Shown in pieces: positions 15,482 to 32,000 of a stretch of DNA of 32,000 bases. The translations under genes and the position numbers were made by a program. The DNA is from Mucisphaera calidilacus (lineage in GTDB: Bacteria > Planctomycetota > Phycisphaerae > Phycisphaerales > Phycisphaeraceae). The stretch lies in contig NZ_CP036280.1 in the NCBI RefSeq assembly GCF_007748075.1, positions 240,001 to 272,000 on the forward strand, in the 5' to 3' direction. The notes under the pieces were generated by a model, which was not told the origin of the DNA, searched no databases, and saw only the letters and a list, made by a program, of their open reading frames with translations. Every line of letters begins with the position of its first letter. Position 1 is the stretch's first letter.

Positions 15482-15505
15482 CCAGCAAGCGGCCGCGCAT
15501 CAAAA

Positions 15506-15529: not shown

Positions 15530-15556
15530 CGTCGATCAACCATCAGCGTCCCGTCA

Positions 15557-16183: not shown

Positions 16184-16256
16184 ACCAAGGCTCCTTCTGT
16201 AGTGTTTTGCTCAAAACAACAAAGTTAAAAAACCCAATAACACGCGCACCGATCGA

Positions 16257-17837
16257 TCAGGCCCCACGGCAACCGCGACGCGAAAGAACACCCGCAAGAC
16301 CAAAACCAAGCAGGGCCGCTGACACCGGCTCGGGCACCGGTGCGCCCGTCACAAAGCGAACCTCACTCAGGCCGACGTACCCCGTGCCGCCCCAGTTGTC
16401 CTCGAACTCGAAGCGGACGTAACGAACCCCCTCGGCACCCTCAAGATCAAAAACCTGCGCCACCAGATCCTCGCCCTGAACATACTGCTCAAGCCGGATC
16501 GTGCCGATCTCGGCGAAGTCCCCCGCCACCGGATTGAGAACATCACTCACGAGAATCCGAAGGTCACGCGCTCCCTGATCCGAGAAATCAAAACTGCTGA
16601 ACGCCTCGCCGAACTGCCAGATCGCGACCTGGTCAAGGTTAAGCACCTGACCCAGATCAAACACGATGAACTGCTCGTCGATCGGCTGACCATAGAAGTT
16701 GGTCCACATGCCGTCCGCGGCCGAGTCGTACGTCCCCGAGGCGTGAACAGAATCGAGCTCCACACGCTCCTGACCGAGATGACCAACAATGCCCGCCCCG
16801 GTCACCAGCTGATCAACACTCCGATCCCCCTTGCGGCTCTCCGCCGAAGAGAAGTCGTAAATCGTCCCCGCGATCAGCGTCCCCGCGGGAACCACGTCAC
16901 GCTGGTTGGCAAAACGACGCTCAAAGTCCACCTCGAGATCAAACGAACTGCCCGGATCCGTCAGCGACTGATCAAGCGTCGGCGAATAACTGGTGTGACG
17001 AATCACGTCGGCATCGAAATCAAACTCCATCAGACGCAGATACCCGTCGCCACCGTTCGACAGGCCCTGGTAATCCACCAGAACCCGGTGAACCGCCAGA
17101 CCCGCCGCGTTGTAACTGACCTCCGCACGCGTGCCGTGATAGTGGCCGTTCAAGGTCATGAAGACCTGAGCGTTCGGCATCACCAGCTCATCCCAGATCG
17201 TCTGAGCGGGATTGCCATACCCGTGCCGAATATACGTCGTGTCTCTGATGTTCCCGTTGTTGTCCATCAACAGGTGCGTCGACAGTATCGCAGGGGTGTC
17301 AGGATGGGCGTCAAGCACCGACTGAGCCCAGGCCAGTTCCGCATCCGGAGCATCAATATCAACCGACAGCATCAGAATATCCTGATCACCCATCGATACC
17401 ACGTGATACTGACTCATCGCGCTGGCCGAGTGACCGCCATACGTAGGCATCGACGCAAAACGACTCGCCCCAAAGTAGTGACGGTAGTTCACCCCGCCAT
17501 CGCCATACAGATCGTGATTGCCCGGCGTCACCGAGTAATTCATCCCCGCCGCATCGAGATAGCCCATCGAGGTATCGGCGTTCACCCACTCGCCGAGGTT
17601 TGCGCCATACTCCACGATATCGCCGAGATGCGTCGTGAAAACGATATTCCGCGATGACGCCTGATCCGCAAGCCATTGCGTCTGAGCATCGAAAGTCTCA
17701 GGGTAGAGCTGGGCGTAGTACTGCGTGTCAGGCAGCACGGCAACGGTATAGCTCGCTCCAAATGCCTCCGCCGAAGGAATCAAAGCGACATAGGCCATGG
17801 TCATGGTATAGACGAGGTGGCGGGTGCTGATCATCAT
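16257..17837 (-). CDS. calcineurin-like metallophosphoesterase with discoidin (F5/8 type C)-like domain and PEP-CTERM anchor
   Basis: ATG at 17837, 9 nt after AGGAG. Phosphoesterase motifs VAVLPDTQYY, HLGDIVEYG, TPGNHD, LNGHYHG. The C-terminal part (IAIWQFGE..., VRYVRFEF..NWGG.GYVGLSEVRF) resembles a discoidin carbohydrate-binding domain. It ends VPEPVSAALLGFGLAGVLSRRGCRGA. Confidence 0.85.
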   Translation of the reverse strand: MMISTRHLVYTMTMAYVALIPSAEAFGASYTVAVLPDTQYYAQLYPETFDAQTQWLADQASSRNIVFTTHLGDIVEYGANLGEWVNADTSMGYLDAAGMNYSVTPGNHDLYGDGGVNYRHYFGASRFASMPTYGGHSASAMSQYHVVSMGDQDILMLSVDIDAPDAELAWAQSVLDAHPDTPAILSTHLLMDNNGNIRDTTYIRHGYGNPAQTIWDELVMPNAQVFMTLNGHYHGTRAEVSYNAAGLAVHRVLVDYQGLSNGGDGYLRLMEFDFDADVIRHTSYSPTLDQSLTDPGSSFDLEVDFERRFANQRDVVPAGTLIAGTIYDFSSAESRKGDRSVDQLVTGAGIVGHLGQERVELDSVHASGTYDSAADGMWTNFYGQPIDEQFIVFDLGQVLNLDQVAIWQFGEAFSSFDFSDQGARDLRILVSDVLNPVAGDFAEIGTIRLEQYVQGEDLVAQVFDLEGAEGVRYVRFEFEDNWGGTGYVGLSEVRFVTGAPVPEPVSAALLGFGLAGVLSRRGCRGA

Positions 17838-18272
17838 CAGTATGAACTCCTAGAGTGTCAGGGAAAGTACCTACGTAGAAGTCAGCACAGACCATCGCCT
17901 GTGACAGAGATAGCCCACGCCACGCAAGGCGTAGACAACCACCACCTGCCACACTCAGGCAGACCATGCCGATGTGCCTGCAACACAACACAAACTCCAG
18001 CCTCTCGACCCGAGCCGCAGGGATGAAAGCCGGTAACGTCGATACCATTTCAGCACGACAACAAACCGACTCTGGTAGAGACATATAAAAGCCGGATATG
18101 AAGATCACGTGGGTATAGCGTGAATAAACTGCAAAAAAGACCAATAGGCATATATATCCCCGAAGCCGGTATCAAATGAACAGCCAAACACGAAGCGTGC
18201 GCAGCACCAACACAGAAACAGCGCACATCACCGCATCGCCCCCGGATCACCCTCAGATCGCTCGCAACACCC

Positions 18273-19271
18273 TCACGCCGCCAGCACCAGACGGTACCTG
18301 GGCGAACCCGAACGCAGCTTCTCAAACGCCTCGTTGATCTCGGCCATCGGGTACCGCTCCGTCATCGGCTCGATCCCGTGACGCGCCGCGAAGTCAAGCA
18401 TCGTCGCGATCACCGACGGACTGCCCACAGGCGACCCGCCCAGGCTCTTCTGGCCCAGAATCATCGGGAACACCGGAAGCGTCACGTCCGGCGCCGCACC
18501 CACCACGTGCAGCCGACCCTTAGGCGACAACGTCTCCAGATAACTCGGCCAGTCCAACGACACGTTCACCGTCGAGATCACAAAATCAAGCGACCCCGCA
18601 ATCGACTTGAACGACTCCGGATCACGCGAGTTCGCAATGTGATGAGCCCCCAGCCCGCGAGCCTCCTCCGCCTTCGACTCCGACGACGTGAACGCCGTCA
18701 CCTCGCAACCCCACTTGCTCAGGAACTGCAACGCCAGGTGGCCCAGCCCGCCGATCCCGATCACGCCCACGCGGTCCGTAGGCCGAACATCAAACTGAAC
18801 CATCGGGTTGAACACCGTGATCCCGCCGCAGAAAAGCGGCCCCGCCTTCATCGGGTCAACACCCTCAGGCAAAGGCACCACGCTGTTCGCGTGACCACGA
18901 ACACGATCCGCAAACCCGCCGTGACGACCCACAATCGTCGCCTCCGACGAACCGCACAGATTGTGATCCCCGCTCATGCACTGCTGGCAATGCATGCACG
19001 CGTTGCTGAACCACCCCAGACCCGCAACCTGCCCCACCGACAGATGCTCCACCGCATCACCCACCGCCACGATCTTCCCGATCACCTCGTGACCACCCAC
19101 AAACGGATACGTCGTCATCCCCCAGTCATTGTTCACCATCGACAGGTCCGAGTGACAGATCCCCGACGAGATCACCTCCAGTTCAACCTCGCCAGCCTTC
19201 AACTCACCCGGGTCATACTCAAAAGCCTCAAACGCCCCACCCGCTTCCGCCGCCGCATACGCCTTGAACAT
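18273..19271 (-). CDS. zinc-type NAD(P)-dependent alcohol dehydrogenase (cinnamyl-alcohol/YahK-like group)
   Basis: ATG at 19271, 7 nt after GGAG (the track ORF has a 19-codon extension). GICHSDLSM, GHEVIGKIVAVG, structural-zinc Cys cluster CMHCQQCMSGDHNLC, Rossmann motif VGVIGIGGLGHLALQF. Confidence 0.9.
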   Translation of the reverse strand: MFKAYAAAEAGGAFEAFEYDPGELKAGEVELEVISSGICHSDLSMVNNDWGMTTYPFVGGHEVIGKIVAVGDAVEHLSVGQVAGLGWFSNACMHCQQCMSGDHNLCGSSEATIVGRHGGFADRVRGHANSVVPLPEGVDPMKAGPLFCGGITVFNPMVQFDVRPTDRVGVIGIGGLGHLALQFLSKWGCEVTAFTSSESKAEEARGLGAHHIANSRDPESFKSIAGSLDFVISTVNVSLDWPSYLETLSPKGRLHVVGAAPDVTLPVFPMILGQKSLGGSPVGSPSVIATMLDFAARHGIEPMTERYPMAEINEAFEKLRSGSPRYRLVLAA

Positions 19272-19354
19272 GACACGCTCCTGGTTAGGGGATAAACCGC
19301 ACTCTAGCGCCGTCGCCCATCCGGTCAAGGCATATCATCGAGGATCATCCCCCT

Positions 19355-20656
19355 CTACTCCTCCCGACGCAGCATCTCCCGAGGCGGCAGATCACGCAGA
19401 CGCTCCGGATAATCGGCCGGCAGGGCCCACACGAACCCATACTTGCTCTGAACCAACCCACGCTCCGCAGGACCCAGGTCCGTGCGCACCGCCAGCACCA
19501 CGTCCGTGCTCGCCCACGGATTCGTAAACCAATACTCGTGACCCGTGATATCAAAACCACGCGTCTCCGCACCCAGAGACACGTCCAGGGCCATCACGTT
19601 CCCCAGACCCTCAATCATCTCCGCCTCCTCAGCCGTCATCGACCCGTCCTTCTGCCCGATACGCGTCTGCCCACCCATGAAGAACTTCGCGTTGATCAAG
19701 GCGATGTCATTCGACGACGCACTCACGATCACACGCTCACTCAACGACGAGATCCTCCCGATCGAATCCAGAAACAGGTCACGCTCCACGTCACCCGCCA
19801 CGAAATAAACCGTCCCCAGACGCAGCTTCTCACGCAGCGACGCACCCTCCGACAACAACGGCGCCTGACGATCATGAAGCGATGCCAACGCCTGCGTCAG
19901 AACACGCGCGCCCGCACTCCACGCCACGATGTGAATCCGCCGCGCCGCGCTCTTCTCCGCCAGAACCTCCAACAGCCGCGCCAGCGATTCCGCCGACGCA
20001 CGCCCACGCTCCATGTCCGACCCGAACGCGTAATGAAAAATGTCCTGGTGCGTCGGCCAGCAGAACGCAAGCGACGTCATGTCTCGACCCATGAAGTGAT
20101 CGATCTGCGCCGCAAACGCGTTCCCGTTGTAAAAATCAACCTTCGCACCGTGCACGTAGATCATCAGATCCTTGTCGCGAGCATCACCGATCGAATCATT
20201 CAGATCATGCATCCACCAGCCCACGCCCGTCGTCTCAACAATCTCCTCCGTCGTCCCCGCCGGATCAAAACCGCCCGCCTCCACCACGCCATTCACCGTC
20301 AAAACCACCGACTCCTCACGCTCACGCCGCGACACCACCTCCTGCAACGCCTCCCAGCTCAGCGACGGACTCCCAAACCCGATCAGCGACAACCCCACCG
20401 ACACCTGGTCACTGAGCTTGTTCCCGTAATCCACACGCCGCATGTCCGTCGTTCGCGTACGCGTCGTCGCATAGTAAACCCGACGATTCGTAAACCGCTC
20501 CGACTCCGGCACGTGATCCACCGGACCCTTACCCAGCTCCGTATACACCACAGGCGTAGGCATCAACGTCTTGATCCCGCTCGTACACCCCCACGAAACC
20601 ACAACCACAACCACAAGAACCAGACACAAACCCACTCGCTCAGACAGGCAGCTCAT
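19355..20656 (-). CDS. lipoprotein alpha/beta hydrolase of the DUF900-like type
   Basis: Lipobox-like N-terminus LVVVVVVSWGC. RRVYYATTR, DLMIYVHGAKVDFYNG.AFAAQIDHF, LAFCWPTH and the nucleophile-elbow-like IHIVAWSAGARV match the DUF900 hydrolase pattern as recalled. Confidence 0.7.
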   Translation of the reverse strand: MSCLSERVGLCLVLVVVVVVSWGCTSGIKTLMPTPVVYTELGKGPVDHVPESERFTNRRVYYATTRTRTTDMRRVDYGNKLSDQVSVGLSLIGFGSPSLSWEALQEVVSRREREESVVLTVNGVVEAGGFDPAGTTEEIVETTGVGWWMHDLNDSIGDARDKDLMIYVHGAKVDFYNGNAFAAQIDHFMGRDMTSLAFCWPTHQDIFHYAFGSDMERGRASAESLARLLEVLAEKSAARRIHIVAWSAGARVLTQALASLHDRQAPLLSEGASLREKLRLGTVYFVAGDVERDLFLDSIGRISSLSERVIVSASSNDIALINAKFFMGGQTRIGQKDGSMTAEEAEMIEGLGNVMALDVSLGAETRGFDITGHEYWFTNPWASTDVVLAVRTDLGPAERGLVQSKYGFVWALPADYPERLRDLPPREMLRREE

Positions 20657-20755
20657 AACACAACCTCACGGGTAACAGCACGCAGACCAGAACGCACGGA
20701 CCACCCCCATAGTACGAATTTCAATCCTTCACGAGACCCGCACGCCGCCAAACAC

Positions 20756-23323
20756 CTACTCCGACCACACCACCACCATCGACCACGCAGGCAACACGAT
20801 CTCACCCGTCGCCGCCGCCAACGGCTCGTCCGCCGAAGCCGACGCCGCATCGACCATCACGCTCCACGTCCCCTCAGGCAGAGGCAGCGTGTGCTTCTCC
20901 GGCTCACCGTTGTAAGCCACGATGATCCGCGACCAAGAATCACCCACCGCCGCACCATCCAGCTCGAACGCAAACAACTTCCCCAACTGCAGGAAGTGGA
21001 TGTGCCGACGCACCGTCTCCGAGTCCGGGATCCGAAACGCCGGGTGCGCCCTGCGGATCGCGATCAGACCCCTCACGTACGCATAAACATCCCGGTACTC
21101 CGCCTTGCGATCCCAGTCAAAACGATTGACCGCATCGCCCGCGTTGTACGAGTTGTGATGCCCCCCCTTGGTCCGCGCAAAATCCGAGCCGCCATGCAGA
21201 AACGCCACGCCCTGACTCGTCAGCACCATCCCCAACGCCAGCTTCTGCATCGCACGCTTGTCCGCGTCACTCGCCTTAGGCAGCGTGTACTCAAGCTTGT
21301 CCCAGTACGTCCGGTTGTCGTGCGCCGACACGTAATTCACCGACTCCGTCGGCTCGTCCGCGAAATCACTGATCCCCCCCGCGACACCCTCCCGGATCGC
21401 CTCCGTGTTCCCACCCTTGCCGTTCGCAAAACCCTGACTCTTCCCGTCCAGGTCGCCACGGATCGCGTTGCGGTAATGGTCGTTGAACACCGCCATCGCC
21501 ATCCCACGCTGCGCACCCTTCGGGAAATGCGTCGGCCCACCACCCGTCCACGGCTCGCCATAAAGCGTCAGGTCCTCACGGATCGCCAGCAACGCCTCGC
21601 ACAACGCCTCCACCGTCTCCGGGTGATGCGTCCCCAGCAAGTCAAACCGAAAACCGTCCACACGGTACTCGTTCACCCAGAACACCAGCGAATCCACGAT
21701 GTACTTCCGCACCATCAGACGCTCGTCCGCCACCGAGTTCCCCACGCCAGCATCGTTTAGCAATAAACCGTCGTCACCCGTCCGGAAGTAGTAGTTCGGC
21801 ACCGTCTGATGGAAAGGCGAAAATTCAAAGCTGCTCGACGTGTGGTTGTACACCACGTCAAGAATCACACGGATCCCCTTCCCGTGCAGACCCGACACCA
21901 TCTGCTTGAACTCGCTCGGACCCGCCATCGGGTCATAAACGTCCGTCGCATAATTCGACTCGGGCAGATTGAACAACGCCGTCCAGTAACCCCAGTTGTA
22001 CTCGCCCACCGCCGACGAAAAATCATGAATAGGCAGCAGGTGCACCGCCGTCACACCCAGGTCCAGCAGATGATCCACACCCGTCGACACCCCGTCCCCC
22101 TCCGCCGGGTTCTCGTGAATCAAACCGAGGTAAGTGCCCCGATGCTCCTCCGGACACGACGCATCCGCCACCGAATAGTCCCGCACGTGAATCTCGTAAA
22201 TCACCTCGTCCGTCTGGTGCTCCCGAACCGGATTCGCCACAAGACCCCAACCCTCCGGGTCCGTCCGGTCCAGATCAATCACCACCGAACGACGGCTGTC
22301 AAACGTCGCCGCGTACGTGTTGATGTCCGCCGCGATGCGCTCCTGACCATACGACACAAACCGATACACATACGCCTTGCCTTGCAGATCACCCTCCACC
22401 CGCACAGCCCAGACACCCCGCTCACCCTGCTCCATCGGCACCACCCGCGACGGCTCACGCGCATCCAACGCGTCATACAACAACAACTCCGCCGACACCG
22501 ACACAGGCGACCACACCGCGAAATCCGTCCCCGCCGCCGAATAACGATGCCCCAGCTCAGCATCCAACGCCAGGTAAGCCGCGCTGTCCAGCACGCCCCG
22601 CGCATAAATCCAACGCGGCTCAAACTCCGGAATCGTCAGCTGAAGCCGGCCCACGTCCCCAGGCAGAACCTTCCGCGTCAGGTGCAGGTCATAAACAATC
22701 CGCGCCGTCGTGTCACTCTTGGTCCGCTCCACCCGCGACACCGAATACGTGCTCGGGTTCTCACCCGCCGTCGCGATCCGAATCGCCGTCCGCTGACGCT
22801 GCGTCAACTGACCCGTCGCCGCGATCCGGATCCGATCATCACCATCCAGAAACGCCGCCACCAGCTTGGTCGTCAGGTCCACCCGCGCCGGAGTTGTATA
22901 AATGTTGTTGTCGCCAGACACGAGCCAGACCTCCGTGATGGGCTTGGAATCGGACAGAGTAACGAAACGATCCATCCCCACGTCCCGGGTTTCCCATTCA
23001 TTCTTCCGCAGAAGAAACCCCGACCGCACCGAACGGTCCTCAACCGGAATCACGAAGTAGGGCCCATAATCCGTCTCACCCGCAGGATCGACACCCCCGC
23101 CCTCACCCCCCTCGGCCCACGACCACACGTTCCAACCCTCATAAACCCCGTCCGGCCGGTGATAGTGCATGATCAGCACCGACTCCGTGCCGTAGTCCGA
23201 CACCACCACACGATCCGCCACCGAGACCGGCACCACCTCCGCACAAACCCCCGAAACCCCGACCAGCAGACCCACCGCCACAACAAGCCCGACCACCACG
23301 CGACGCATCGCCATCCTGAACAT
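20756..23323 (-). CDS. pulA: type I pullulanase (GH13 alpha-1,6-glucosidase)
   Basis: The ATG at 23323 is preferred because GGAG lies 8 nt upstream (the track start at 23338 is a TTG). Signal peptide MRRVVVGLVVAVGLLVGVSGVCA. GH13 conserved regions VILDVVYNHT, VDGFRFDLLG, YGEPW, NYVSAHDN, plus the pullulanase-type YNWGY motif and an N-terminal CBM-like region. Confidence 0.9.
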   Translation of the reverse strand: MFRMAMRRVVVGLVVAVGLLVGVSGVCAEVVPVSVADRVVVSDYGTESVLIMHYHRPDGVYEGWNVWSWAEGGEGGGVDPAGETDYGPYFVIPVEDRSVRSGFLLRKNEWETRDVGMDRFVTLSDSKPITEVWLVSGDNNIYTTPARVDLTTKLVAAFLDGDDRIRIAATGQLTQRQRTAIRIATAGENPSTYSVSRVERTKSDTTARIVYDLHLTRKVLPGDVGRLQLTIPEFEPRWIYARGVLDSAAYLALDAELGHRYSAAGTDFAVWSPVSVSAELLLYDALDAREPSRVVPMEQGERGVWAVRVEGDLQGKAYVYRFVSYGQERIAADINTYAATFDSRRSVVIDLDRTDPEGWGLVANPVREHQTDEVIYEIHVRDYSVADASCPEEHRGTYLGLIHENPAEGDGVSTGVDHLLDLGVTAVHLLPIHDFSSAVGEYNWGYWTALFNLPESNYATDVYDPMAGPSEFKQMVSGLHGKGIRVILDVVYNHTSSSFEFSPFHQTVPNYYFRTGDDGLLLNDAGVGNSVADERLMVRKYIVDSLVFWVNEYRVDGFRFDLLGTHHPETVEALCEALLAIREDLTLYGEPWTGGGPTHFPKGAQRGMAMAVFNDHYRNAIRGDLDGKSQGFANGKGGNTEAIREGVAGGISDFADEPTESVNYVSAHDNRTYWDKLEYTLPKASDADKRAMQKLALGMVLTSQGVAFLHGGSDFARTKGGHHNSYNAGDAVNRFDWDRKAEYRDVYAYVRGLIAIRRAHPAFRIPDSETVRRHIHFLQLGKLFAFELDGAAVGDSWSRIIVAYNGEPEKHTLPLPEGTWSVMVDAASASADEPLAAATGEIVLPAWSMVVVWSE

Positions 23324-23500
23324 GAGCAAACTCCACAATCAGACCCATGAAACCCTCGATCCGGCCACAGTTTAACCGTTTCACCGAGCCTGAACAGCCC
23401 CCAATCCGCCATTTCACACACTTATTCTCACACCCGGGTGGCTGTGGACAGACCGAGTCTGCGAGGGCTGCCCACAGATCCCAGTGTTTTCTTAACCCCC

Positions 23501-23567
23501 ACGAGCCCCAAGCGCGAGCTTGGGGTGCCCACACCCCTACGAGCCCCAAGCGCAAGCTTGGGGCGCC
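23501..23567. repeat. two tandem copies of a 29-nt unit, each forming an 8-bp hairpin closed by a GNRA tetraloop
   Basis: ACGAGCCCCAAGC-GCGA-GCTTGGGGTGCC (23501-23529) and ACGAGCCCCAAGC-GCAA-GCTTGGGGCGCC (23539-23567). The stem is CCCCAAGC/GCTTGGGG. They lie in the divergent intergenic region between pulA and the giant pentapeptide gene. Confidence 0.7.
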
Positions 23568-23718
23568 ACACCGCAACCGAGTCCCCGAGGTTGCTGTTTG
23601 TAAACCCTCCCAACCCCGACCAACACCCAACGCCGAATCGAAGGACTCCCAAAAAAAGTCCACGAAATCCTCTGTCCGTGATAAACTTTCACCATTGCCT
23701 CACCACGGAGAGAGAGCC

Positions 23719-26700
23719 ATGACACGCATCACTTCCGGGGGCCTCGCCGCCCTCGCGTTCACCCTCGCGACCTCAGCACATGCCGACATCAAGCAGTGGG
23801 AGTACATCGACCCCGCAAACCCCGATCTGGGCCGCCAGCGATCCACCACCCTCGCTCCCGACGGCGCAGGACGCGACGCCACCCCCAACGCCATCCTGAA
23901 TGACCTCGACCTCACCAAGGCGTGGCTGCGCTCGGCAGACCTCACCAACGCCAACTTGGGAGGTGCTACGCTGACCAACGCCGACCTGACCGGGGCCTAC
24001 CTCTACCAAGCCACACTGACCGACGCCAACCTCACCAACGCCAACATCACCGAGGCAAACCTCTACCAAGCCACACTGACCAACGCCAACATCGCCGGTG
24101 CAGTTTTTCATGACACCACTTCTCGCGGCTTTACCGCAACGCAGCTCTACAGCACCGCCAGCTACCAGAACAAGGACCTCAGCGGTCTGAACCTGGGCAA
24201 TAACGACCTCACCGGCTGGGACTTCACCGACCAGAACCTCACGGAGGCAGACTTCGACAACGCCACACTGACCGATGCCAACCTGAGCAACGCTAACCTC
24301 ACCGACGCAGACTTCGAAGAAGCCATACTGACCGATGCCGACCTGAGCAACGCCGACATCACCAAGGCAAACCTCTACCAAGCCACACTGACCGACGCCA
24401 ACCTCACCAACGCCAACATCACCGAGGCAAACCTCTACCAAGCCACACTGACCAACGCCAACATCGCCGGTGCAGTTTTTCATGACACCACTTCTCGCGG
24501 CTTTACCGCAACGCAGCTCTACAGCACCGCCAGCTACCAGAACAAGGACCTCAGCGGCGTGAGCCTAAGCGGTAACGACCTCACCGGCTGGGACTTCACC
24601 GACCAGAACCTCACGGAGGCAGACTTCGAAGAAGCCATACTGACCGATGCCGACCTGAGCAACGCCGACATCACCAAGGCAAACCTCACCAACGCCAACC
24701 TCACCAACGCCAACATCACCGAGGCAGATTTTCGTTACACCACCTCTCGTGGTTTCACCGCCAGCCAACTCTACAGCACCGCCAGCTACCAGAACAAGGA
24801 CCTCAGCGGCCTGAACCTGAGGGGCAACGACCTCACCGGCTGGGACTTCACCGACCAGAACCTCACGGAGGCAAACTTCCGCTATGCCACGCTCACCAAC
24901 GCCGACCTGTCCGACGCAATCATCACCGGGGCATCCTTCTATTCAACCACCTCTCGTGGTTTCACCGCAGCCCAGCTCTACAGCACCGCCAGCTACCAGA
25001 ACAAGGACCTCAGCGGCGTGAGCCTAAGCGGTAACGACCTCACCGGCTGGGACCTCGCCGACCAGAACCTCACCGGGGCCTACTTCTACGGCGCCACGCT
25101 GACCAACGCCAACCTCACCAACGCCAACATCACCGAGGCAGATTTTGGTTACACCACCTCTCGTGGTTTCACCGCCAGCCAGCTCTACAGCACCGCCAGC
25201 TACCAGAACAAGGACCTCAGCGGCGTGAGCCTAAGCGGTAACGACCTCACCGGCTGGGACTTCACCGACCAGAACCTCACGGAGGCATCCTTCCACTATG
25301 CCTGGCTCACCAACGCCGATCTGACCAACGCCAACCTCACCTGGGCCTACCTCTACAACGCCGACCTGACCAACGCCGACCTGAGCAACGCCAACATCAC
25401 CGAGGCAGATTTTGGTTACACCACCTCTCGTGGTTTCACCGCCAGCCAGCTCTACAGCACCGCCAGCTACCAGAACAAGGACCTCAGCGGTCTGAACCTG
25501 GGCTATAACGACCTCACCGGCTGGGACTTCTCCGGTCAGAACCTCACCGATGCAGACTTCGAGTCTGCCACGCTGACCAACGCCGACCTGAGCAACGCCG
25601 TCATCGCCGGTGCAGTTTTTTATTACAGCACCTATCGTGGTTTCACCGCCAGCCAGCTCTACAGCACCGCCAGCTACCAGAACAAGGACCTCAGCGGCGT
25701 GAGCCTAAGCGGTAACGACCTCACCGGCTGGGATTTCTCCGGTCAGAACCTCACCGATGCAGACTTCGAGTCTGCCACGCTGACCAACGCCGACCTGACC
25801 AACGCCGACCTGACCAACGCCAACATCACCGAGGCAAACCTCTACCAAGCCACACTGACCAACGCCAACCTCACCAACGCCAACATCACCGAGGCAGATT
25901 TTCGTTACACCACCTCTCATGGTTTCACCGCCAGCCAACTCTACAGCACCGCCAGCTACCAGAACAAGGACCTCAGCGGCGTGAGCCTAAGAGGTAACGA
26001 CCTCACCGGCTGGGACTTCACCGGCCAGAACCTCACGGAGGCATCCTTCCACTATGCCTGGCTCACCAACGCCGACCTGACCAACGCCGTCATCGCCGGT
26101 GCAGTTTTTTATTACAGCACCTATCGTGGTTTCACCGCCAGCCAGCTCTACAGCACCGCCAGCTACCAGAACAAGGACCTCAGCGGCGTGAGCCTAAGGG
26201 GTAACGACCTCACCGGCTGGGACTTCACCGACCAGAACCTCACGGAGGCATCCTTCCTCTATGCCACGCTGACCAACGCCGACCTGAGCAACGCCGACAT
26301 CACCAAGGCAAACCTCTACCAAGCCACACTGACCAACGCCAACCTCACCAACGCCAACATCACCGAGGCAAACCTCTTCCAAGCCACACTGACCAACGCC
26401 AACCTCACCAACGCCAACATCACCGAGGCAGATTTTCGTTACGCCACCTATCGTGGTTTCACCGCCAGCCAGCTCTACAGCACCGCCAGCTACCAGAACA
26501 AGGACCTCAGCGGTCTGAACCTGGGCTATAACGACCTCACCGGCTGGGACTTCTCCGGTCAGAACCTCACCGATGCAGACTTCGAGTCTGCCACGCTGAC
26601 CAACGCCGACCTGAGCAACGCCAACATCGCCCGGGCTAGCTTTTCTAACACGACCTCTAGCGGCTTCACCGCAGCCCAGCTCTACAGCACCGCCAGCTAC

Positions 26701-27558
26701 CAGAACAAGGACCTCAGCGGCGTGAGCCTAAGCTATAACGACCTCACCGGCTGGGACTTCACCGACCAGAACCTCACTGAGGCCTACTTCTACGGCGCCA
26801 CGCTGACCAACGCCGACCTGAGCAACGCCGACACCAGAGGATCCTACGGGTTGACCAGCGACCAACTGCTTTCAGCCGCCGACACCACCAACCTCATCCA
26901 CCCCGACGGCCACGTCGAGGGCTTGACTCTCGTTGCCAGCCAGACCTTCCGCGTCTGGGACTTTATGCCGCACAGAGAGACGCTTCCGATCATCCCCATC
27001 ACCATCGAGCAGCACCTCACCCTCGACCCCGCCGCCACCTTCCGCATGGTCTTCGAGGACGACCAGTGGGGCTCCCTCATCCAGTTCGCCGACCCCGGCA
27101 CCCCCGTCACCCTCGCAGGCACCCTCCTCCTCGAGTTCGACGACACCCTCACCCTCGACGACCTGCTCCTCCTCGACGGCGTCACCTACCAGCTCTTCGA
27201 CTGGACCGATGCCAACATCACCGGAGCCTTCGACAGCATTACCTACGACGGCCCTGGCAGTTTCGACACCTCTCTGCTCATGACCACGGGTGAAGTCACC
27301 TACAACTTCGCATCCGGCCTCCCCGGTGATGCCAACAGCGATGGCAGTGTGGATCTCTTGGATCTCTCAATCCTGGCAAGCAACTTCAATCAATCAGGAG
27401 ACTACGAGCAGGGCGACTTCAACGGCGACAACACCATCGACCTCCTCGACCTCTCCATCCTCGCCAGCAACTTCGGCAACACCACCATCCCGACCCCCGC
27501 GACCCTCCCGCTGACCACCCTCGGGCTCCTCTTAATCACCCGCCGACCCGCCGCCTGA
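23719..27558 (+). CDS. giant secreted pentapeptide-repeat protein (1279 aa) with uncharacterised pre-anchor domain, dockerin-like twin repeat and variant PEP-CTERM tail
   Basis: ATG at 23719 after GGAGAGAGAG gives the signal peptide MTRITSGGLAALAFTLATSAHA; the 124 upstream in-frame codons of the track ORF are not coding-like. There are hundreds of A(D/N)LXX pentapeptide units, organised in 11 modules each opened by RGFTA.QLYSTASYQNKDLSG. The C-terminus carries GDANSDGSVDLLDLSILASNF...GDFNGDNTIDLLDLSILASNFG and then IPTPATLPLTTLGLLLITRRPAA. Confidence 0.9.
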   Translation: MTRITSGGLAALAFTLATSAHADIKQWEYIDPANPDLGRQRSTTLAPDGAGRDATPNAILNDLDLTKAWLRSADLTNANLGGATLTNADLTGAYLYQATLTDANLTNANITEANLYQATLTNANIAGAVFHDTTSRGFTATQLYSTASYQNKDLSGLNLGNNDLTGWDFTDQNLTEADFDNATLTDANLSNANLTDADFEEAILTDADLSNADITKANLYQATLTDANLTNANITEANLYQATLTNANIAGAVFHDTTSRGFTATQLYSTASYQNKDLSGVSLSGNDLTGWDFTDQNLTEADFEEAILTDADLSNADITKANLTNANLTNANITEADFRYTTSRGFTASQLYSTASYQNKDLSGLNLRGNDLTGWDFTDQNLTEANFRYATLTNADLSDAIITGASFYSTTSRGFTAAQLYSTASYQNKDLSGVSLSGNDLTGWDLADQNLTGAYFYGATLTNANLTNANITEADFGYTTSRGFTASQLYSTASYQNKDLSGVSLSGNDLTGWDFTDQNLTEASFHYAWLTNADLTNANLTWAYLYNADLTNADLSNANITEADFGYTTSRGFTASQLYSTASYQNKDLSGLNLGYNDLTGWDFSGQNLTDADFESATLTNADLSNAVIAGAVFYYSTYRGFTASQLYSTASYQNKDLSGVSLSGNDLTGWDFSGQNLTDADFESATLTNADLTNADLTNANITEANLYQATLTNANLTNANITEADFRYTTSHGFTASQLYSTASYQNKDLSGVSLRGNDLTGWDFTGQNLTEASFHYAWLTNADLTNAVIAGAVFYYSTYRGFTASQLYSTASYQNKDLSGVSLRGNDLTGWDFTDQNLTEASFLYATLTNADLSNADITKANLYQATLTNANLTNANITEANLFQATLTNANLTNANITEADFRYATYRGFTASQLYSTASYQNKDLSGLNLGYNDLTGWDFSGQNLTDADFESATLTNADLSNANIARASFSNTTSSGFTAAQLYSTASYQNKDLSGVSLSYNDLTGWDFTDQNLTEAYFYGATLTNADLSNADTRGSYGLTSDQLLSAADTTNLIHPDGHVEGLTLVASQTFRVWDFMPHRETLPIIPITIEQHLTLDPAATFRMVFEDDQWGSLIQFADPGTPVTLAGTLLLEFDDTLTLDDLLLLDGVTYQLFDWTDANITGAFDSITYDGPGSFDTSLLMTTGEVTYNFASGLPGDANSDGSVDLLDLSILASNFNQSGDYEQGDFNGDNTIDLLDLSILASNFGNTTIPTPATLPLTTLGLLLITRRPAA
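24001..26830 (+). repeat. intragenic higher-order tandem repeats (11 modules of about 69-123 codons) with long perfectly identical DNA blocks
   Basis: For example, 24001-24185 is identical to 24373-24557 (185 nt, offset 372). The block CAGCTCTACAGCACCGCCAGCTACCAGAACAAGGACCTCAGCGG recurs 11 times. Other blocks of about 110-160 nt recur near 25441/26464 and 25598/26086. Confidence 0.85.
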
Positions 27559-27582
27559 GAACCGATACTTTCTTTCACCCCC

Positions 27583-27629
27583 ACCCCCTGATTCCGGGGG
27601 TCGCGCGCACAAGGACGGTTCTTGTGCGC
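27583..27629 (+). terminator. two consecutive hairpins after the giant gene stop (terminator-like, no T-run)
   Basis: ACCCCC-TGATTCC-GGGGGT (27583-27601) and GCGCACAAG-GACGGTT-CTTGTGCGC (27605-27629), 25-70 nt after the stop at 27556-27558. Confidence 0.4.
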
Positions 27630-27640
27630 ACGTCGTGACC

Positions 27641-27730
27641 AAAAACAGGCCCTTTTTGGACCAAAACGCCCCAAAACGGACGAAAACGAACCCAAAACGC
27701 TCGAAAACGACCCGAAACGAACCCGAAAAA
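27641..27730. repeat. helically phased A-tract array (predicted intrinsically curved DNA)
   Basis: A4-5 tracts start at 27641, 27663, 27673, 27683, 27694, 27704, 27715 (A3) and 27726, most as AAAACG. From 27663 on the spacing is 10, 10, 11, 10, 11, 11 nt. A T5 tract lies at 27653. Confidence 0.7.
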
Positions 27731-27784
27731 GTGTAAATTCCTGCAAAGTCGTCAGACTGTGCGCGCCGCAACCCCCACAAAAGA

Positions 27785-27810
27785 AGCCCCGGCCGAAATC
27801 GACCGGGGCT
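27785..27810 (-). terminator. orphan rho-independent terminator on the minus strand
   Basis: AGCCCCGG / CCGGGGCT 8-bp stem with a 10-nt loop. On the minus strand it is followed by CTTCTTTTGTG. It lies about 375 nt downstream of the nearest minus-strand stop (28183). Confidence 0.45.
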
Positions 27811-28182
27811 GCCTCTCCCTCGTCCACACCCCCACCTCCCCCCCCTCGGAGAGAAGAAAGAGCAAAACACGCCGTGCGTCCATTACCCCGTCACACAAGG
27901 GTCGGCTGACATAAAGACATTCAAAGTAATCTTTTATGCCAGTAAGACTAAACCGGGGTACTCCGTGACGGCGTATCCCGGGTGGGTCAGGGGTCCTTCT
28001 CAAGTTCCGGGCCGGCCTCGAGATCAGCGGCAGACGTCACCCGTCGCCCGCCAGCCTCCCTCTCAGGCAGCCATGCCCAAAATTCCCTGACAATAAAGGG
28101 TTACGAGCCTCCACCCGACGCCCTGCGCGACGCAGACGAAAAAACCCCCAGGCCGCGCAGACGGCACAACAGACCGCCAGCA

Positions 28183-30549
28183 TCAATCCAGCGAGCTCAG
28201 GATCATCGACGTGAAGTCATTCATGTAACTGTGTTTATGCGCCTGCTTACGCAGCCACTCCGCCTGCCGCGGGTGTGTCTGCGCCAATGCCAGATACGTC
28301 AGCTGCAGCCGCTCGTACCCGAACGTGACCCGCAGTTCGACGCCGTTCGGCAGACGGACCGAGCTCTCCAGCAGGTCGGCCAACTCTTGCCCATCTGAAC
28401 CCGCGTCGCGCATAAAGACCTTGGCACGATTGAGTTGTGATTCGGCACGTTCATTCTGCCCCGCATCGCGCATCAGCACAAAAAGCAGCAGACGTTCGAA
28501 CGCGCTGTCCTCAACGATGCCCTGCTCGAGTAGATTCAGAGCGGTATCCCAGTCGCGATCGATCAGAGCATTCACGTAAGCATAGTTTTCGTCTTCGCTT
28601 GCGTGCGACAGCTCCGCGTAGGCGTCGAGATCGCCTCTGGCCTCGTGCATCGCAAGCGTCAGTTCGTTGGTGAGCGTGGTCGCGGTCTCCGGCTCGATCT
28701 CGGGGTTGAGTCGGCGGAGATCGCGCTGGAACCGGGCGATGACGCGCTCGGCCTCGCGTTCCTGACCGCTGGCGGCCAGCAGGGCGACGTGCTGGCGGGT
28801 GAGGTCGAAGTCGTAGTCATTCTCGTAGAGCCGGGCTTCGGTTTCGGCGATGAGTTGCTCGTAGTGGCCGCAGGCGAGTTTGAGGTCGTAGGCGAGGTTG
28901 GCGAAGGTACTGTTGTTCGGCATCGCGCGGGTCGAGCGATCGTTGGCTTCGAGGGCGGAGGCGAAGTAGCCCATGAGCTTGAGGCGGAAGGCTCGGGCGT
29001 GGTTGAGGTAGGGATGATCGGGATGGCGGGCGAGGCCGCGTTCGACCCGTTGTGCGGCGTGTTCGTGATCATTGATTGTGCGAGCGTAGAGGTAGATCAG
29101 GTCGGGGTTGTCCGGCTCGGCCTCGTGGCGTTGTCGGTATTCGGCGACGAGGTCGACCTCGGGCTGGGTGGATTCGATATAGGTCTGGTAGGCGCGGTGC
29201 CACTCGACAAGGACGGGGCGTGCTTCGAGGTGGGTCTGTGCGAGGCGGAGGAATTCGTCTTCGCCAAGGAGGCCGAGTGTGAAGGAGGGGACGTGTGGCT
29301 CGTTCGGCGTGTAGGTTGCGGCGCGTTCGAGGTATTCGGCCGTGGTCTCCATGCCGTACTCGTCGTGGAGGAAGCTGAGTTTTTCGCCGAGTTGTACGTT
29401 CCGGATGATGTTGCAGGCGGACTTCCAGACGACGCTCTGGTCGGAGGGTATGTCCATCTCGTCGGGGAGTTCGCGCATGGGGTAGTCGATGCCGGTGAGG
29501 TGGTGGAGTGTGGCGGGGGTGTGGATCTCGTATTCGTAGCCTTCGCCCAGCTTGGGGCGGATGGAGTAGGCGGCGTTTTCGTGGGTGACGAGTGCCATCT
29601 GGTCGGGGTTGATGACGTAGGTGTTTCGGCCGAGGACGCGGTCCCAGAAGGTGGTGTTGAGGTTGATGCGGGTGGCGGGGAACTGGAAATCGCCGGGCAC
29701 GGGTTCGACGGCGACTTCGCCGTAGGTGAGTTTGATCTTGGGGGTGCGGTTGGGTCGGAGCATGACGGTCTGCGTGTCGATCATGACTTTGTACGGCTCG
29801 CTGATGCCGCTGACGACGTAGACCTTGTCGGTGGTGTTGTCGAGGAGTGCCGCGACGCCGAAGATGAGCAGGGGGATGACAAAAAGCAGGACAAAGACGG
29901 CGGCGACGACGAGAAGGAAGGCGCGGTAGATGAAGCTGCGTTTGCGGCTGCCGGGCGCCCTGATCTTAACCTGCTTCGGGGCGCGTCCGGAGCGGAGGCT
30001 TTTCTCGAGTCGCTTGCGTCGCTGCCTGATGCTTTTCCTGAACTGGCGGGCTCGTTCGGGGTAGAGCTGTTCGTGTCGGTCGAGTTGGTCGAGCGCGGCT
30101 TGCGCGTCGCCTAGCCTGGTGTAGGCATCGGTGAGCTGGATGAGCAGAGCGCCGGCTTCTTCGGCCTGCTGGCTGACGAGTTCGTCGGTATGGGCCTGGG
30201 CCTCTTCGATCTGGTTGGTCTGGATGAGGACTTCGATGAGTTGTAGGAGGGTTTGCTTGTCGTGGCTGAGGGCGAGTGATGCGGAGAGTGCGTCGAGGGC
30301 GAGCTCGTCTACGCATCGGTTGTAGGCGACGGCGGCGGCGAGGCGGAGGGTGTCGGGGTTGTCGGACTGCTCGTCGATCACGCTTTGGAGCATGGGCTTT
30401 TTCTGTTGATCGCTCATGCAGGTGACGGCGAGTTCGAGAAGCTCGCGTGCGTACTCGGCGGTGGGGCTGTTCTCGTAGTTCTGTTTGACGGACGGCCAGC
30501 GGACGTCGTGGAGCTGTTCCCAGTCACGGTGCGGGACCATGGTGCCCAT
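28183..30549 (-). CDS. large membrane protein with TPR-like helical repeat regions on both sides of a central TM segment (minimal ORF; see the upstream extension 30550-30738)
   Basis: 788-aa track ORF. A basic stretch plus a hydrophobic segment (RKRSFIYRAFLLVVAAVFVLLFVIPLLIFGVAALL) is flanked by helical repeat-like sequence with a beta-rich insert after the TM. No Shine-Dalgarno sequence precedes the ATG at 30549, unlike most genes here. Confidence 0.85.
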   Translation of the reverse strand: MGTMVPHRDWEQLHDVRWPSVKQNYENSPTAEYARELLELAVTCMSDQQKKPMLQSVIDEQSDNPDTLRLAAAVAYNRCVDELALDALSASLALSHDKQTLLQLIEVLIQTNQIEEAQAHTDELVSQQAEEAGALLIQLTDAYTRLGDAQAALDQLDRHEQLYPERARQFRKSIRQRRKRLEKSLRSGRAPKQVKIRAPGSRKRSFIYRAFLLVVAAVFVLLFVIPLLIFGVAALLDNTTDKVYVVSGISEPYKVMIDTQTVMLRPNRTPKIKLTYGEVAVEPVPGDFQFPATRINLNTTFWDRVLGRNTYVINPDQMALVTHENAAYSIRPKLGEGYEYEIHTPATLHHLTGIDYPMRELPDEMDIPSDQSVVWKSACNIIRNVQLGEKLSFLHDEYGMETTAEYLERAATYTPNEPHVPSFTLGLLGEDEFLRLAQTHLEARPVLVEWHRAYQTYIESTQPEVDLVAEYRQRHEAEPDNPDLIYLYARTINDHEHAAQRVERGLARHPDHPYLNHARAFRLKLMGYFASALEANDRSTRAMPNNSTFANLAYDLKLACGHYEQLIAETEARLYENDYDFDLTRQHVALLAASGQEREAERVIARFQRDLRRLNPEIEPETATTLTNELTLAMHEARGDLDAYAELSHASEDENYAYVNALIDRDWDTALNLLEQGIVEDSAFERLLLFVLMRDAGQNERAESQLNRAKVFMRDAGSDGQELADLLESSVRLPNGVELRVTFGYERLQLTYLALAQTHPRQAEWLRKQAHKHSYMNDFTSMILSSLD

Positions 30550-30738
30550 TTTGCATTGCGGGCATTCGCCGAGGATGCGTTTTCGGCCGAGGGGGATCAG
30601 CGGGAGGAGGTAGAAGCAGAAGTAGCGAGAGGTGTCGTAGTCGCGTAGGAGGCCGTTGTGGCCTCAGTGATCGCAGGTGTCTCTGTGCAGCAGGAAGTTC
30701 TTCTGGTTGAGATTCTTAATGCCCCAGACAATCAGCAT
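30550..30738 (-). other. in-frame N-terminal extension of the membrane/TPR gene encoding a zinc-ribbon plus hydrophobic hairpin, interrupted by one TGA (30666-30664)
   Basis: ATG at 30738, preceded by AGGGG and an in-frame stop two codons upstream. It reads MLIVWGIKNLNQKNFLLHRDTCDH-TGA-GHNGLLRDYDTSRYFCFYLLPLIPLGRKRILGECPQCK and runs straight into the ATG at 30549 in the same frame. With Cys at the TGA this would be CxxCG...RYF.FYLLPLIPL...CxxC. Confidence 0.55.
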
Positions 30739-30888
30739 GCGTCAACCCCTTTCGGGGATCATCATACAGGGAGATCGTTTGAGTGTGTCGGGCTGGCGTG
30801 AGGCGTGTGTGAGGGTATGCGTTGTTACTTGTCGCGACCCTACTGCGCTTGCGCGGTGGAGGGCTAAGGCGTGTGCTGCGATTCCGGT

Positions 30889-32000
30889 TCAGGCGCTGCG
30901 TCGCCTGGCGAGGGCGAGGCCGGTGAGGGCGAGTGTGACGAGTGAGTTGGGTTCGGGGATGAGGTGGAAGGTGACTTCGCCTGTGGTCATGAGGCTGGAG
31001 GTGTCGAAGCTGCCGGGGCCGTGGTACTCGATGGCGTCGAAGGTGCCGGTGATGTCGGCGTGGGTCCAGTCGAAGAGCTGGTAGGTGACGCCGTCGAGGA
31101 GCAGGAGGTCTGCGAGCGTGAGGTCGTCGTCGAACTCGAGGATCAGGGTGCCGGCGATCTGGACGGGGGTTTGCGGGTCGGCGAAGGTGATGGTGGAGCC
31201 CCAGTCCTTGTCGGCGAAGACGAGGTGGATGGCGGCGGTGGGCGTCATGATCAGTCGTTCGTGGAAGGTGATGGGGATGGGCTGGTCGTGTGATTTCGGC
31301 TGGTAGTCCCAGATATAGGCTTCGTCGTGGAGGAGCTGGAATCCCTGGAAGGAGCCGTCGGGGCCGATGTAGGTGGCATTGCCTTGAAGGCTGCTCAGTT
31401 GCTCGGGGGTGAGGTTGGTCGCTCCGCGGAAGTCGACAAGTGAGAGTTTGGTCAGCAGGAAGCTGGCCTGATCGAGGTTGGTATTGGTGAGGTTGGTGCT
31501 GTGGAGTGTGGCAACGAAGAAGTTGCTGTGTGCGAGGTTGGCGCCGGCGAGGTCCCAGCCGGAGAGGTCGTGGCCTTCGAGGCCGAGCCCCGGCAGATGG
31601 CCCTGTTGGTAGCTGAGAGTGCTTTCGAGCATGTCGCGGGTGAGTTTGTTGTGGCTGGATGCCGTCGTGTTGAAGTTGGCATAGGCGATGGTGGCGTTCG
31701 TGATGACGATGCCGGTGGTGTTGGTTTCGCTGAGGTCGAGGCGGTCGAGGTTGAAGCCGCTGAGGTCGAGTCCGGTGAGGCTGATGGCGGGGAGCGTGAT
31801 GCCTGAGAGGTCGCGGTGCTGGTAGCTGCGGGTGCTCAGGAGTTTTTGTTGTGAGAAGCCCGTGGTGTCTTTGAGGTTGACGCCCGTGATGGAACTGTTG
31901 GTGAAGTTCGTGGTGGCGAGGTCGGTCTCTTTGAGGCTGGCGTTGGTGAGGTCGACGTCGGTGAAGTCGGTGTTGTGCAGGGTGGCCTTGTCGAGTTTGG
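30889..32000 (-). CDS. pentapeptide-repeat protein, paralogue of 23719-27558, with the same pre-anchor domain and a canonical PEP-CTERM tail (partial; N-terminus beyond the right window edge)
   Basis: The track lists only 30889-31632, but the same frame stays open to position 32000 when translated by hand (...KLDKATLHNTDFTDVDLTNASLKETDLATTNFTNSSITGVNLKDTTGFSQQKLLSTRSYQHRDLSGITL...). It ends IPEPNSLVTLALTGLALARRRSA. Confidence 0.9.
   Translation of the reverse strand, partial: KLDKATLHNTDFTDVDLTNASLKETDLATTNFTNSSITGVNLKDTTGFSQQKLLSTRSYQHRDLSGITLPAISLTGLDLSGFNLDRLDLSETNTTGIVITNATIAYANFNTTASSHNKLTRDMLESTLSYQQGHLPGLGLEGHDLSGWDLAGANLAHSNFFVATLHSTNLTNTNLDQASFLLTKLSLVDFRGATNLTPEQLSSLQGNATYIGPDGSFQGFQLLHDEAYIWDYQPKSHDQPIPITFHERLIMTPTAAIHLVFADKDWGSTITFADPQTPVQIAGTLILEFDDDLTLADLLLLDGVTYQLFDWTHADITGTFDAIEYHGPGSFDTSSLMTTGEVTFHLIPEPNSLVTLALTGLALARRRSA

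Follow-up and report, generated by a model that had tools for sequence, protein, structure and literature searches.

The strand-composition flip analysed here lies in a stretch of 32,000 nt (the window) from the circular chromosome of Mucisphaera calidilacus Pan265 (CP036280.1; 3.49 Mb, 3,486,541 bp). The locus is about 280 kb from the start of the record, i.e., at ~8% of the chromosome, and falls within Pan265_02340, which encodes a TPR/transmembrane protein. Between this gene and gene A is a gap that carries no annotated gene, and the accessions of the two genes that flank it, QDU70406 and QDU70407, are consecutive. Beyond Pan265_02340 lies gene B, a paralog of gene A (Table 1). The strands of the window genes were assigned from Pfam hits and from exact matches to annotated proteins. 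The full-length product of gene B (P0109) has 738 aa, and the first 369 codons of the gene are outside the window. The paralogy of genes A and B is in inverted orientation, with 79% identity over 314 nt (26991-27301 vs 30969-31279). No further M. calidilacus member was found for the C-terminal module that is common to the two genes, and the gene B fragment, when used as a query, matched no protein of the M. calidilacus genome.

Elsewhere in the window, the left arm region has low-skew islands, one at 6000-7500 and another at positions 1-1270, the left end, where the near-zero skew gives the segment an island-like appearance and where two small - strand ORFs are found. The secE-nusG genes also lie in the window, as does a URO-D family gene (1419-2420) whose UniProt name identifies it as an MtaA/CmuA-like paralog; given this naming and its distance of 26 kb from the flip, the URO-D gene is no evidence of a hemE-linked origin. 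The literature that was searched on the Pan265 genome makes no mention of its origin, its skew or the position of dnaA. A later genome from the group that reported Pan265 was rotated to dnaA (PMC12910023).

Table 1. Coordinates of the genes, compositional arms and gap elements around the flip (positions are those of the window).
Feature	Coordinates	Strand	Remarks
C/A-rich + strand arm	1271..28300		four-fold-site + strand GC skew -0.72 (+ genes), -0.67 (- genes)
Gene A, pentapeptide-repeat, dockerin and PEP-CTERM protein	23347..27558	+	Pan265_02330; transcribed towards the flip
Gap without annotated gene	27559..28182		between two converging genes
GC-rich hairpin	27602..27632	+	just 3' of the gene A stop codon; 15-nt arms, 87% complementary
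Helically phased A-tract array	27661..27730	+	~7 units of CSAAAACGNN; spacings 10, 10, 11, 10, 10, 11 nt
Strong predicted intrinsic terminator	27785..27810	-	11-bp stem with 9 GC pairs, T tail
Most AT-rich, least stable stretch of the gap	27893..27952		72% AT; contains the imperfect palindrome 27906-27942
TPR/transmembrane protein gene	28183..30549	-	Pan265_02340; QDU70407.1 / WP_145444482.1
Transition zone of the flip	28300..28700		centre ~28,500, inside the 3' part of the TPR CDS
G/T-rich + strand arm	28700..32000		3.3 kb within the window; four-fold-site + strand GC skew +0.77 (TPR gene, 28660-30549), +0.74 (gene B)
Gene B, paralogous pentapeptide-repeat and PEP-CTERM protein	30889..32000	-	transcribed towards the flip

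A preliminary description of this DNA had reported a phased A-tract array, an AT-rich imperfect palindrome and hairpins in the gap, and all of these are present, the array with a period of 10-11 nt. The CSAAAACGNN unit occurs in five exact copies in the array and in 10 copies in the whole window, where 3.0 are expected, and from such a phased arrangement one would predict either an intrinsic bend in the DNA or a set of binding sites that all face the same side of the helix. The terminator at 27785-27810 is predicted to end a structured transcript that runs from 28182 to 27780 on the - strand (RNA fold z = -3.73, with none of 100 shuffles as stable), and an Rfam search of the gap returned only a noise-level match to Spot 42. 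The AT-rich patch, the eighth least stable 60-mer in the window (z = 3.4), is a candidate DNA unwinding element, but a weak one. The palindrome within it is real as a sequence, but its folding as single-stranded DNA does not surpass that of shuffled sequence (z = -0.87), and the hairpin that it might form is not significant.

The GC skew of the + strand, calculated in 1-kb windows, is -0.15 to -0.35 over ~1,300-28,000, is ~0 at 28,001-29,000 and then rises to +0.25 to +0.39 over 28,500-32,000. The AT skew reverses too, in the sense opposite to the GC skew. The polarity flip of the preliminary description is reproduced in both measures, and the base counts that it had made by hand (G 109 and C 134 for 28201-28620, G 120 and C 76 for 28621-28920, and G 27 and C 9 for 28861-28920) are all exact. 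No second flip of the opposite sense occurs within 1,300-32,000, and the skew is unchanged at the repeats shared by genes A and B. The strength of the skew is unusually high, reaching ~0.3 overall and ~0.7 at four-fold sites, and a bias this extreme (~+/-0.7 at four-fold sites) allows the switch to be located within a few hundred bases.

Codon positions give a consistent picture of the two arms and of the zone that separates them. At third codon positions, the genes of both strands up to 27558 have a negative + strand skew and the last two genes a positive one; together with the four-fold sites (Table 1), this upholds the description of the left arm as C/A-rich whichever strand is coding. At four-fold sites the final 69 codons of the TPR gene still have a + strand GC skew of -0.67, which gives way to -0.10 in the ~270 nt between 28,390 and 28,660. 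At first codon positions the skew is -0.20 to -0.37 in the - strand genes on the left and ~0 in the two - strand genes on the right. This shift indicates that the present polarity of both arms is old enough to have altered protein composition.

The maximum-likelihood change points fall at 28,504-28,702, with a support interval of 28,489-28,714, and vary with the sites used. A ramp over 28,315-28,702 does not describe the data significantly better than a single step (p ~0.10), and the flip is sharp, spanning 400 nt or less. Its centre is 130-520 nt inside the TPR CDS, i.e., within the last ~40-170 codons, and not at the edge of the gap, as had been suggested. Nor is the gap the largest of the window, since it measures 624 nt and the gap at 6334-6972 measures 639 nt. 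The observation that the switch lies inside the 3' end of the CDS and that roughly the last 150 codons differ from the rest was correct: on the TPR coding strand, C3 far exceeds G3 in codons 1-600, and G3 equals or exceeds C3 from about codon 640. GC3 in the transition zone is 0.63 (57/90) compared with ~0.83 (581/699) elsewhere in the gene, a difference that was identified post hoc (Fisher p = 2.7e-5).

Since the skew has the same sign in genes of either strand, the asymmetry tracks replication and not transcription. The general leading-strand rule is that G exceeds C and T exceeds A, and because either strand at this locus, when read 5' to 3', goes from C-rich to G-rich, the polarity under this rule is that of an origin. 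The composition reversal is therefore of the origin type, with the + strand passing from C/A-rich to G/T-rich, and is independent of the direction of transcription, as the preliminary description had proposed. The flip is probably a long-standing boundary of replication polarity, with the chromosomal oriC region of Pan265 as its most likely identity. This reading is favoured by a skew that is independent of the coding strand, equally strong on both sides and of the sign expected for an origin, as well as by the sharpness of the flip within an intact gene. The near-zero skew of the foreign-looking, presumably acquired islands of the window, which is not reversed, also counts in its favour. The switch itself maps in the coding sequence and not in the gap, to which the earlier proposal had assigned the candidate origin elements.

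If the flip marks an origin, replication forks would depart in both directions from the zone at ~28.3-28.7 kb. For the rightward fork the + strand would be the lagging-strand template, and it would gain C-to-T changes and turn G/T-rich. For the leftward fork the - strand would be the lagging-strand template, so that the + strand would turn C/A-rich. The flip would then be the point at which the skew of the whole chromosome has its minimum and at which replication initiates, and the phased array or the AT-rich patch may be active in initiation. Small repeat arrays are typical of skew inflections at origins (Chen et al., 10.1101/808410), and for this reason we count the array near the flip in favour of an origin. 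The rank of the AT-rich patch among the 60-mers counts against an origin, as do the position of the flip centre in coding sequence and the composition of the gap, which is still of the left-arm type.

As the preliminary description had indicated, dnaA and dnaN are absent from the window, which reaches 28 kb to the left of the flip and 3.4 kb to its right: a Pfam scan of all substantial ORFs found no DnaA or beta-clamp domain. The cluster of DnaA boxes that it had also failed to find is missing from a scan for TTATCCACA-like 9-mers, although the organism may use a lineage-specific box. With one mismatch or fewer, TTATCCACA has three matches in the window, all of them more than 5 kb away from the flip; with two mismatches or fewer, it has 51 matches in the window (44.5 expected), of which a single one, at 27820, falls in the gap. 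No enrichment is seen for the TCCACA core, 13-mer repeats and the DnaA-trio pattern (the latter by inspection only) were not found, and parS has no match in the window with up to three mismatches. The lack of dnaA and dnaN, of a DnaA-box cluster and of parS in the window counts against an origin. For dif, the best 28-mer scores against three dif models are no higher than shuffled sequence can give, and the 28-mers concerned all lie away from the flip; this result counts for an origin.

Several motifs were considered individually and set aside. An 8-nt match to GCGCATAA at 28235-28242 was rejected as dif, as it is in coding sequence and has a poor XerD arm. CATAAASAC and GCGCATAAASAC have three perfect copies in 27,910-28,419, but two of them are in coding sequence, where one derives from the protein repeat F/L-MRDAG and the other from ordinary codons, and the extended motif shows no enrichment across the window. 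Five of the 14 copies of GCAGACG are clustered in 28,030-28,494; this clustering was noticed post hoc and fails correction for multiple testing, and two of the five copies are CGT-CTG codons. TGCGCGACGC is not enriched and was likewise not retained as an initiator motif.

An alternative explanation for the flip is that it is the edge of an inverted segment of native DNA, with one end of the inversion or rearrangement at ~28.6 kb, in which case it would not be the global extremum but a blip of local extent. The opposite skew of full strength that is observed is what a recent inversion of native DNA should leave, and origin-specific motifs were not found. Moreover, the right arm extends for just 3.3 kb in the window and the first 1.27 kb on the left has near-zero skew, so that a second flip may lie just beyond either end of the window, which counts against an origin and is compatible with an inversion. 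The arrangement of genes A and B as inverted paralogs might likewise point to an inversion, but their repeats are only 79% identical and coincide with no change in skew. A breakpoint at 28.3-28.7 kb would also cut the TPR gene, and this gene is intact across the flip. The distant homologue P0002 aligns collinearly across the flip in a single alignment (query 69-787), and a second one, P0008, does so to the last residue (query 108-788). The gene neighbourhoods of P0002 and P0008 are unrelated and show no synteny.

The TPR protein is the sole M. calidilacus member of its family, so the genome holds no paralog from which a hybrid gene could have been assembled. With an intact gene and no paralog, a breakpoint or chimera at 28.6 kb, which the preliminary description had offered as an alternative, is not supported. 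Between copies whose four-fold skews were +0.7 and -0.7, identity would presumably be only ~70-75%, which is too low for homologous recombination, and the skew at first codon positions is equilibrated on both sides. On balance, we consider an inversion unlikely.

A second alternative is that the flip joins DNA of two sources as a mosaic junction, with one side acquired, through homologous recombination or horizontal transfer, from a relative that replicates the region in the opposite direction, or, as a variant, that it is a misoriented join in the assembly. Assembly errors or rearrangements can produce skew inflections (10.1101/808410), and the window does hold acquired islands. These islands have near-zero skew, however, and not an opposite skew of full strength. 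There is no repeat at the junction (28.3-28.7 kb), which lies within a continuous ORF that is collinear with its homologues. Donor and recipient would presumably have been too diverged at synonymous sites to recombine, and no close relative is known, as the public protein collections that were searched contain nothing above ~30% identity to the TPR protein. A mosaic or misassembled junction is thus very improbable.

The skew at terminus/dif regions reportedly flips sharply at the XerCD site, and the flip in Pan265 resembles such regions in its sharpness, in the convergence of the genes and in its possible position away from an initiator motif. The least credible explanation is nevertheless that the flip is a replication terminus in an organism with a C/A-rich leading strand. 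In its favour, the genes converge on a site with bidirectional terminators, DnaA boxes are lacking, the secE-nusG genes would be co-oriented with replication and a position inside a gene suits a meeting point of forks better than it suits a defined origin element. Against it, the polarity is the reverse of that of a terminus under the G>C, T>A rule, which to our knowledge holds in all skewed bacteria, no dif-like 28-mer scores above chance, the locus is only ~8% of the chromosome from the start of the record and gene-strand bias is uninformative in Planctomycetes. That gene A (+ strand) and the TPR gene (- strand) converge on the flip, as the preliminary description had cautioned, is true, but it has little weight as evidence against an origin because gene-strand bias in the phylum is ~50% (PMC11040001).

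The interpretation of the flip as an origin invites comparison with origins in other bacteria. Bacterial oriC is reportedly located by the minimum in GC skew, also in predictions of the Ori-Finder and DoriC type. As at origins located in this way, the + strand of Pan265 turns sharply from C-rich to G-rich regardless of the strand of the genes, and the noncoding region that adjoins the switch holds an AT-rich patch as well as a small repeat array. In contrast to such origins, the Pan265 locus has no dnaA or dnaN over the 28 kb to its left and 3.4 kb to its right, TTATCCACA-like boxes form no cluster there, the switch is centred in an intact CDS, and the skew is unusually strong. Origins that are located away from dnaA include Cori of Caulobacter crescentus, which lies between hemE and RP001, and oriC of E. 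coli, which lies between gidA and mioC. The Pan265 candidate is similarly set apart from dnaA and flanked by ordinary housekeeping or envelope genes. It differs from these two origins in that both have recognisable intergenic DnaA boxes (and Caulobacter also CtrA sites), and none were found at the Pan265 locus.

In itself, a skew switch of the origin type is to be expected on every bacterial chromosome. What sets the flip in Pan265 apart is its unusual strength, its place inside an intact gene, and the absence of recognisable DnaA boxes or dnaA nearby. A more specific and rather speculative possibility, which we would advance only tentatively, is that the starting zone of replication, ~300-400 nt long, lies within the 3' end of a gene that is both intact and expressed, without canonical DnaA boxes and far from dnaA, with the phased CSAAAACG array and the AT-rich patch of the gap serving as accessory or initiator-binding elements, and with the extreme bias reflecting an unusual replication or repair regime. 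Were this so, the switch between leading and lagging strand could be read almost to the nucleotide from sequence alone.

Little work has been devoted to the machinery of replication and division in the class Phycisphaerae, and if the flip is confirmed as an origin, the origin would be located for one of its cultured members. The flip would also provide an example of an origin that lacks both linkage to dnaA and recognisable DnaA boxes. With its very strong bias, Pan265 could be well suited to high-resolution mapping of the transition between leading and lagging strands, and it could also serve the study of the factors that determine how strong replication-associated mutation bias becomes.

The + strand of the window switches from C/A-rich to G/T-rich at about 28.3-28.7 kb. 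In 1-kb windows its GC skew is -0.15 to -0.35 in the left arm (~1.3-28 kb) and +0.25 to +0.39 in the right arm (28.5-32 kb), and the AT skew shifts in the opposite direction. The polarity flip of the preliminary description is thus upheld, and all three of its hand counts of G and C proved exact on recount. Its claim that the bias is indifferent to coding strand also holds, as third-position + strand skew is negative in every gene up to 27558 and positive in the last two. At four-fold degenerate sites (Table), the two arms are mirror images with equal and very large skew magnitude.

Mucisphaera calidilacus Pan265, a member of the Phycisphaerae (Planctomycetota), has no plasmid and a single circular chromosome (CP036280.1; 3,486,541 bp, 2,913 genes). 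Protein accessions ascend along the + strand of the window, which is therefore oriented as in the record; counted from the start of the record, the flip comes after ~280 kb, near locus 234. The window carries ordinary chromosomal genes on both strands and no tRNA genes. Change-point likelihoods place the flip at 28,504-28,702 (support 28,489-28,714), and a ramp over 28,315-28,702 gave no significant gain over a single step (p ~0.10). Since the stop codon of the TPR gene lies at 28183, the centre of the switch is 130-520 nt within coding sequence, in the 3' end of that gene as originally described. In the transition zone GC3 is 57/90 versus 581/699 in the rest of the TPR gene (Fisher p = 2.7e-5, post hoc). 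The 624-nt gap between the TPR gene and gene A (27559-28182) still has the composition of the left arm.

Features of the window, with + strand GC skew at four-fold degenerate sites
Feature	Position	Strand	Accession or description	Skew
URO-D family protein	1419	+	QDU70386	
SecE, NusG, RmuC, RelE/HTH toxin-antitoxin pair		+		
RelE/ParE-type toxin	6973-7353		Gp49 family	
HTH antitoxin	7302-7688			
MacB/FtsX permease, metallo-beta-lactamase-fold protein		+		
PEP-CTERM proteins, nitroreductase, AhpC/thioredoxin-like protein, alanine dehydrogenase/PNT protein		-		
Metallophosphoesterase, zinc alcohol dehydrogenase, pullulanase		-		
DUF900 hydrolase	19355	-	Pan265_02310	
Gene A	23347-27558	+	1,403-aa pentapeptide-repeat/dockerin/PEP-CTERM protein	
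GC-rich hairpin	27602-27632		after gene A stop codon	
Phased A-tract array	27661-27730		~7 CSAAAACGNN units, 10-11 nt period	
Strong intrinsic terminator	27810-27785	-		
AT-rich patch with imperfect palindrome	27893-27952			
TPR protein	28183-30549	-	Pan265_02340	
Gene B (partial in window)	30889-32000	-	second pentapeptide-repeat protein	+0.74
+ strand genes left of flip		+		-0.72
strand genes left of flip		-		-0.67
Last 69 TPR codons	28183-28389	-		-0.67
TPR gene, middle section	28390-28659	-		-0.10
TPR gene, remainder	28660-30549	-		+0.77

Does the flip mark an origin or a terminus? Leading strands generally have more G than C and, in bacteria without PolC, more T than A. Under this rule, a change from C/A-rich to G/T-rich, which reads the same 5' to 3' on either strand, means that forks diverge and that the site is an origin. 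The best-supported reading, drawn from the composition of the 32-kb window, is that the flip is rather probably a replication origin. No dif-like 28-mer scored above shuffled sequence, whether the model was a published consensus or the dif site of E. coli or B. subtilis. An 8-nt GCGCATAA match at 28235-28242 falls inside a coding region, with a poor XerD arm. The flanking genes do converge on the flip, as first described, and secE-nusG is head-on to the inferred fork, arrangements that in many phyla would speak against an origin. As counter-evidence the convergence carries little weight in Planctomycetes, where the median gene-strand bias is ~50% (PMC11040001). According to Chen et al., origin-associated skew inflections commonly lie near dnaA and typically include a small repeat array (10.1101/808410); here the repeat array is likewise present but dnaA proximity is not. 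An origin-type skew flip is ordinary as a kind of feature; this one is unusual in how extreme the bias is, in lying within a gene, and in lacking dnaA and recognisable DnaA boxes.

The preliminary description had reported no dnaA or dnaN and no convincing DnaA-box cluster, and both statements stand. DnaA and beta-clamp domains are present in none of the proteins of the window. With up to one mismatch, the window contains three matches to TTATCCACA (1633, 20427 and 22071), and none of them is near the flip; with up to two, there are 51 matches versus 44.5 expected, the only one in the gap being TCGTCCACA at 27820. The TCCACA core showed no enrichment, and no parS site was found. In an unbiased search for 8- to 10-mer repeats over 27,559-28,700, the A-tract array was the sole convincing repeat, others being codon-derived or lost on multiple testing. 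Motif and repeat searches (27,559-28,700; window-wide for DnaA boxes) identified no initiator-binding site. The heptamer GCAGACG has 5 of its 14 window copies within 465 nt (28030-28494), all on the + strand, a post hoc clustering that is not significant after multiple testing, and two of the five coincide with CGT-CTG codons in the TPR gene. The clustering is kept on record should a lineage-specific initiator box be defined later.

The phased A-tracts, hairpins and AT-rich palindrome first described in the gap are all present, but the palindrome folds no better than shuffles. The A-tract array is predicted to bend the DNA statically or to present binding sites along the same helical face. On the - strand, the stretch from the TPR stop to the terminator (27780-28182) has an MFE of -191 versus -170 +/- 5.6 kcal/mol for shuffles (z = -3.7; 0/100 as stable). 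This predicted structure may belong to a long 3' UTR or to an undescribed RNA of ~370 nt; the transcript matched no Rfam family and no tmRNA.

If the flip is an origin, bidirectional replication would begin in or beside 28.3-28.7 kb, beyond which one parental strand would be the lagging-strand template. That template would more often be single-stranded, so that cytosine deamination would build up and generate mirror-image skews. Neither strand would be lagging-strand template in the interval separating the two leading-strand start points, from which the near-zero skew of the zone would follow, and repeated duplex opening could account for the reduced G+C of its synonymous sites. This mechanism is putative, and we infer it from composition alone.

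An alternative raised in the preliminary description, that the flip is an inversion or recombination breakpoint and the TPR gene a chimera, is not supported at this coordinate. Alignment of the TPR protein with two distant homologues, P0002 (847 aa) at 25% identity and P0008 (845 aa) at 26%, gave one collinear segment in each case (query residues 69-787 and 108-788, respectively), extending across the flip as far as the C-terminus. In the homology search the sole M. calidilacus cluster consisted of one gene with two alternative start codons, and no other sequence exceeded ~30% identity; without a paralog there is no partner for an in-frame hybrid. Copies with four-fold skews of +0.7 and -0.7 would, by our estimate, match at ~1/4 of synonymous G/C sites and thus be too diverged for homologous exchange. 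Moreover, the first-codon-position skew of - strand genes is -0.20 to -0.37 on the left and ~0 on the right, a difference implying that the present polarity of each arm is old enough to have altered protein composition. DNA that looks recently acquired (the 6-7.5 kb island and the left end) has skew near zero, not reversed. Genes A and B are inverted pentapeptide-repeat/PEP-CTERM paralogs that flank the flip and read towards it, with 79% DNA identity over 314 nt (26991-27301, +; 30969-31279, -), but skew is unaltered at the repeats, which have diverged too far to have served for recent recombination. Since the TPR gene is intact, a junction at 28.6 kb itself is very unlikely. A further flip may lie just outside the window, which holds 3.3 kb of the right arm and whose first 1.27 kb are uninformative. 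An assembly error is excluded on the same ground, as the open reading frame and its homology carry on unbroken through the junction.

Genes A and B share a C-terminal module of ~139 aa (61% identity) with homologues in metagenomes; a further copy was not found in the M. calidilacus genome. Five PEP-CTERM-anchored proteins occur in 32 kb (9492-10793, 15557-16183, 16257-17837, and genes A and B), a notable density in an organism described as embedded in extracellular matrix. The stretch 2421-3152, in which accession numbering implies one annotated CDS, has no Pfam domain in its ORFs and contains CGC units repeated in tandem every 42 nt (2512-2606). The toxin-antitoxin island at 6000-7700, where GC (~53%) and skew are low and the AT-richest stretches of the window occur, looks recently acquired. 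A further acquired module may occupy positions 1-1270, where skew is near zero and two small - strand ORFs (400-1065, and 3-587, which is cut by the left edge) lack Pfam matches; this stretch masks whether the C-rich polarity extends leftwards.

Over positions 1300-32000, GC skew is ~+/-0.3 overall and ~+/-0.7 at four-fold sites, with the same sign for either gene strand. To our knowledge, strand bias of this strength matches or exceeds the highest values reported in bacteria. Such strong bias suggests that mutation or repair is unusual in the lineage.
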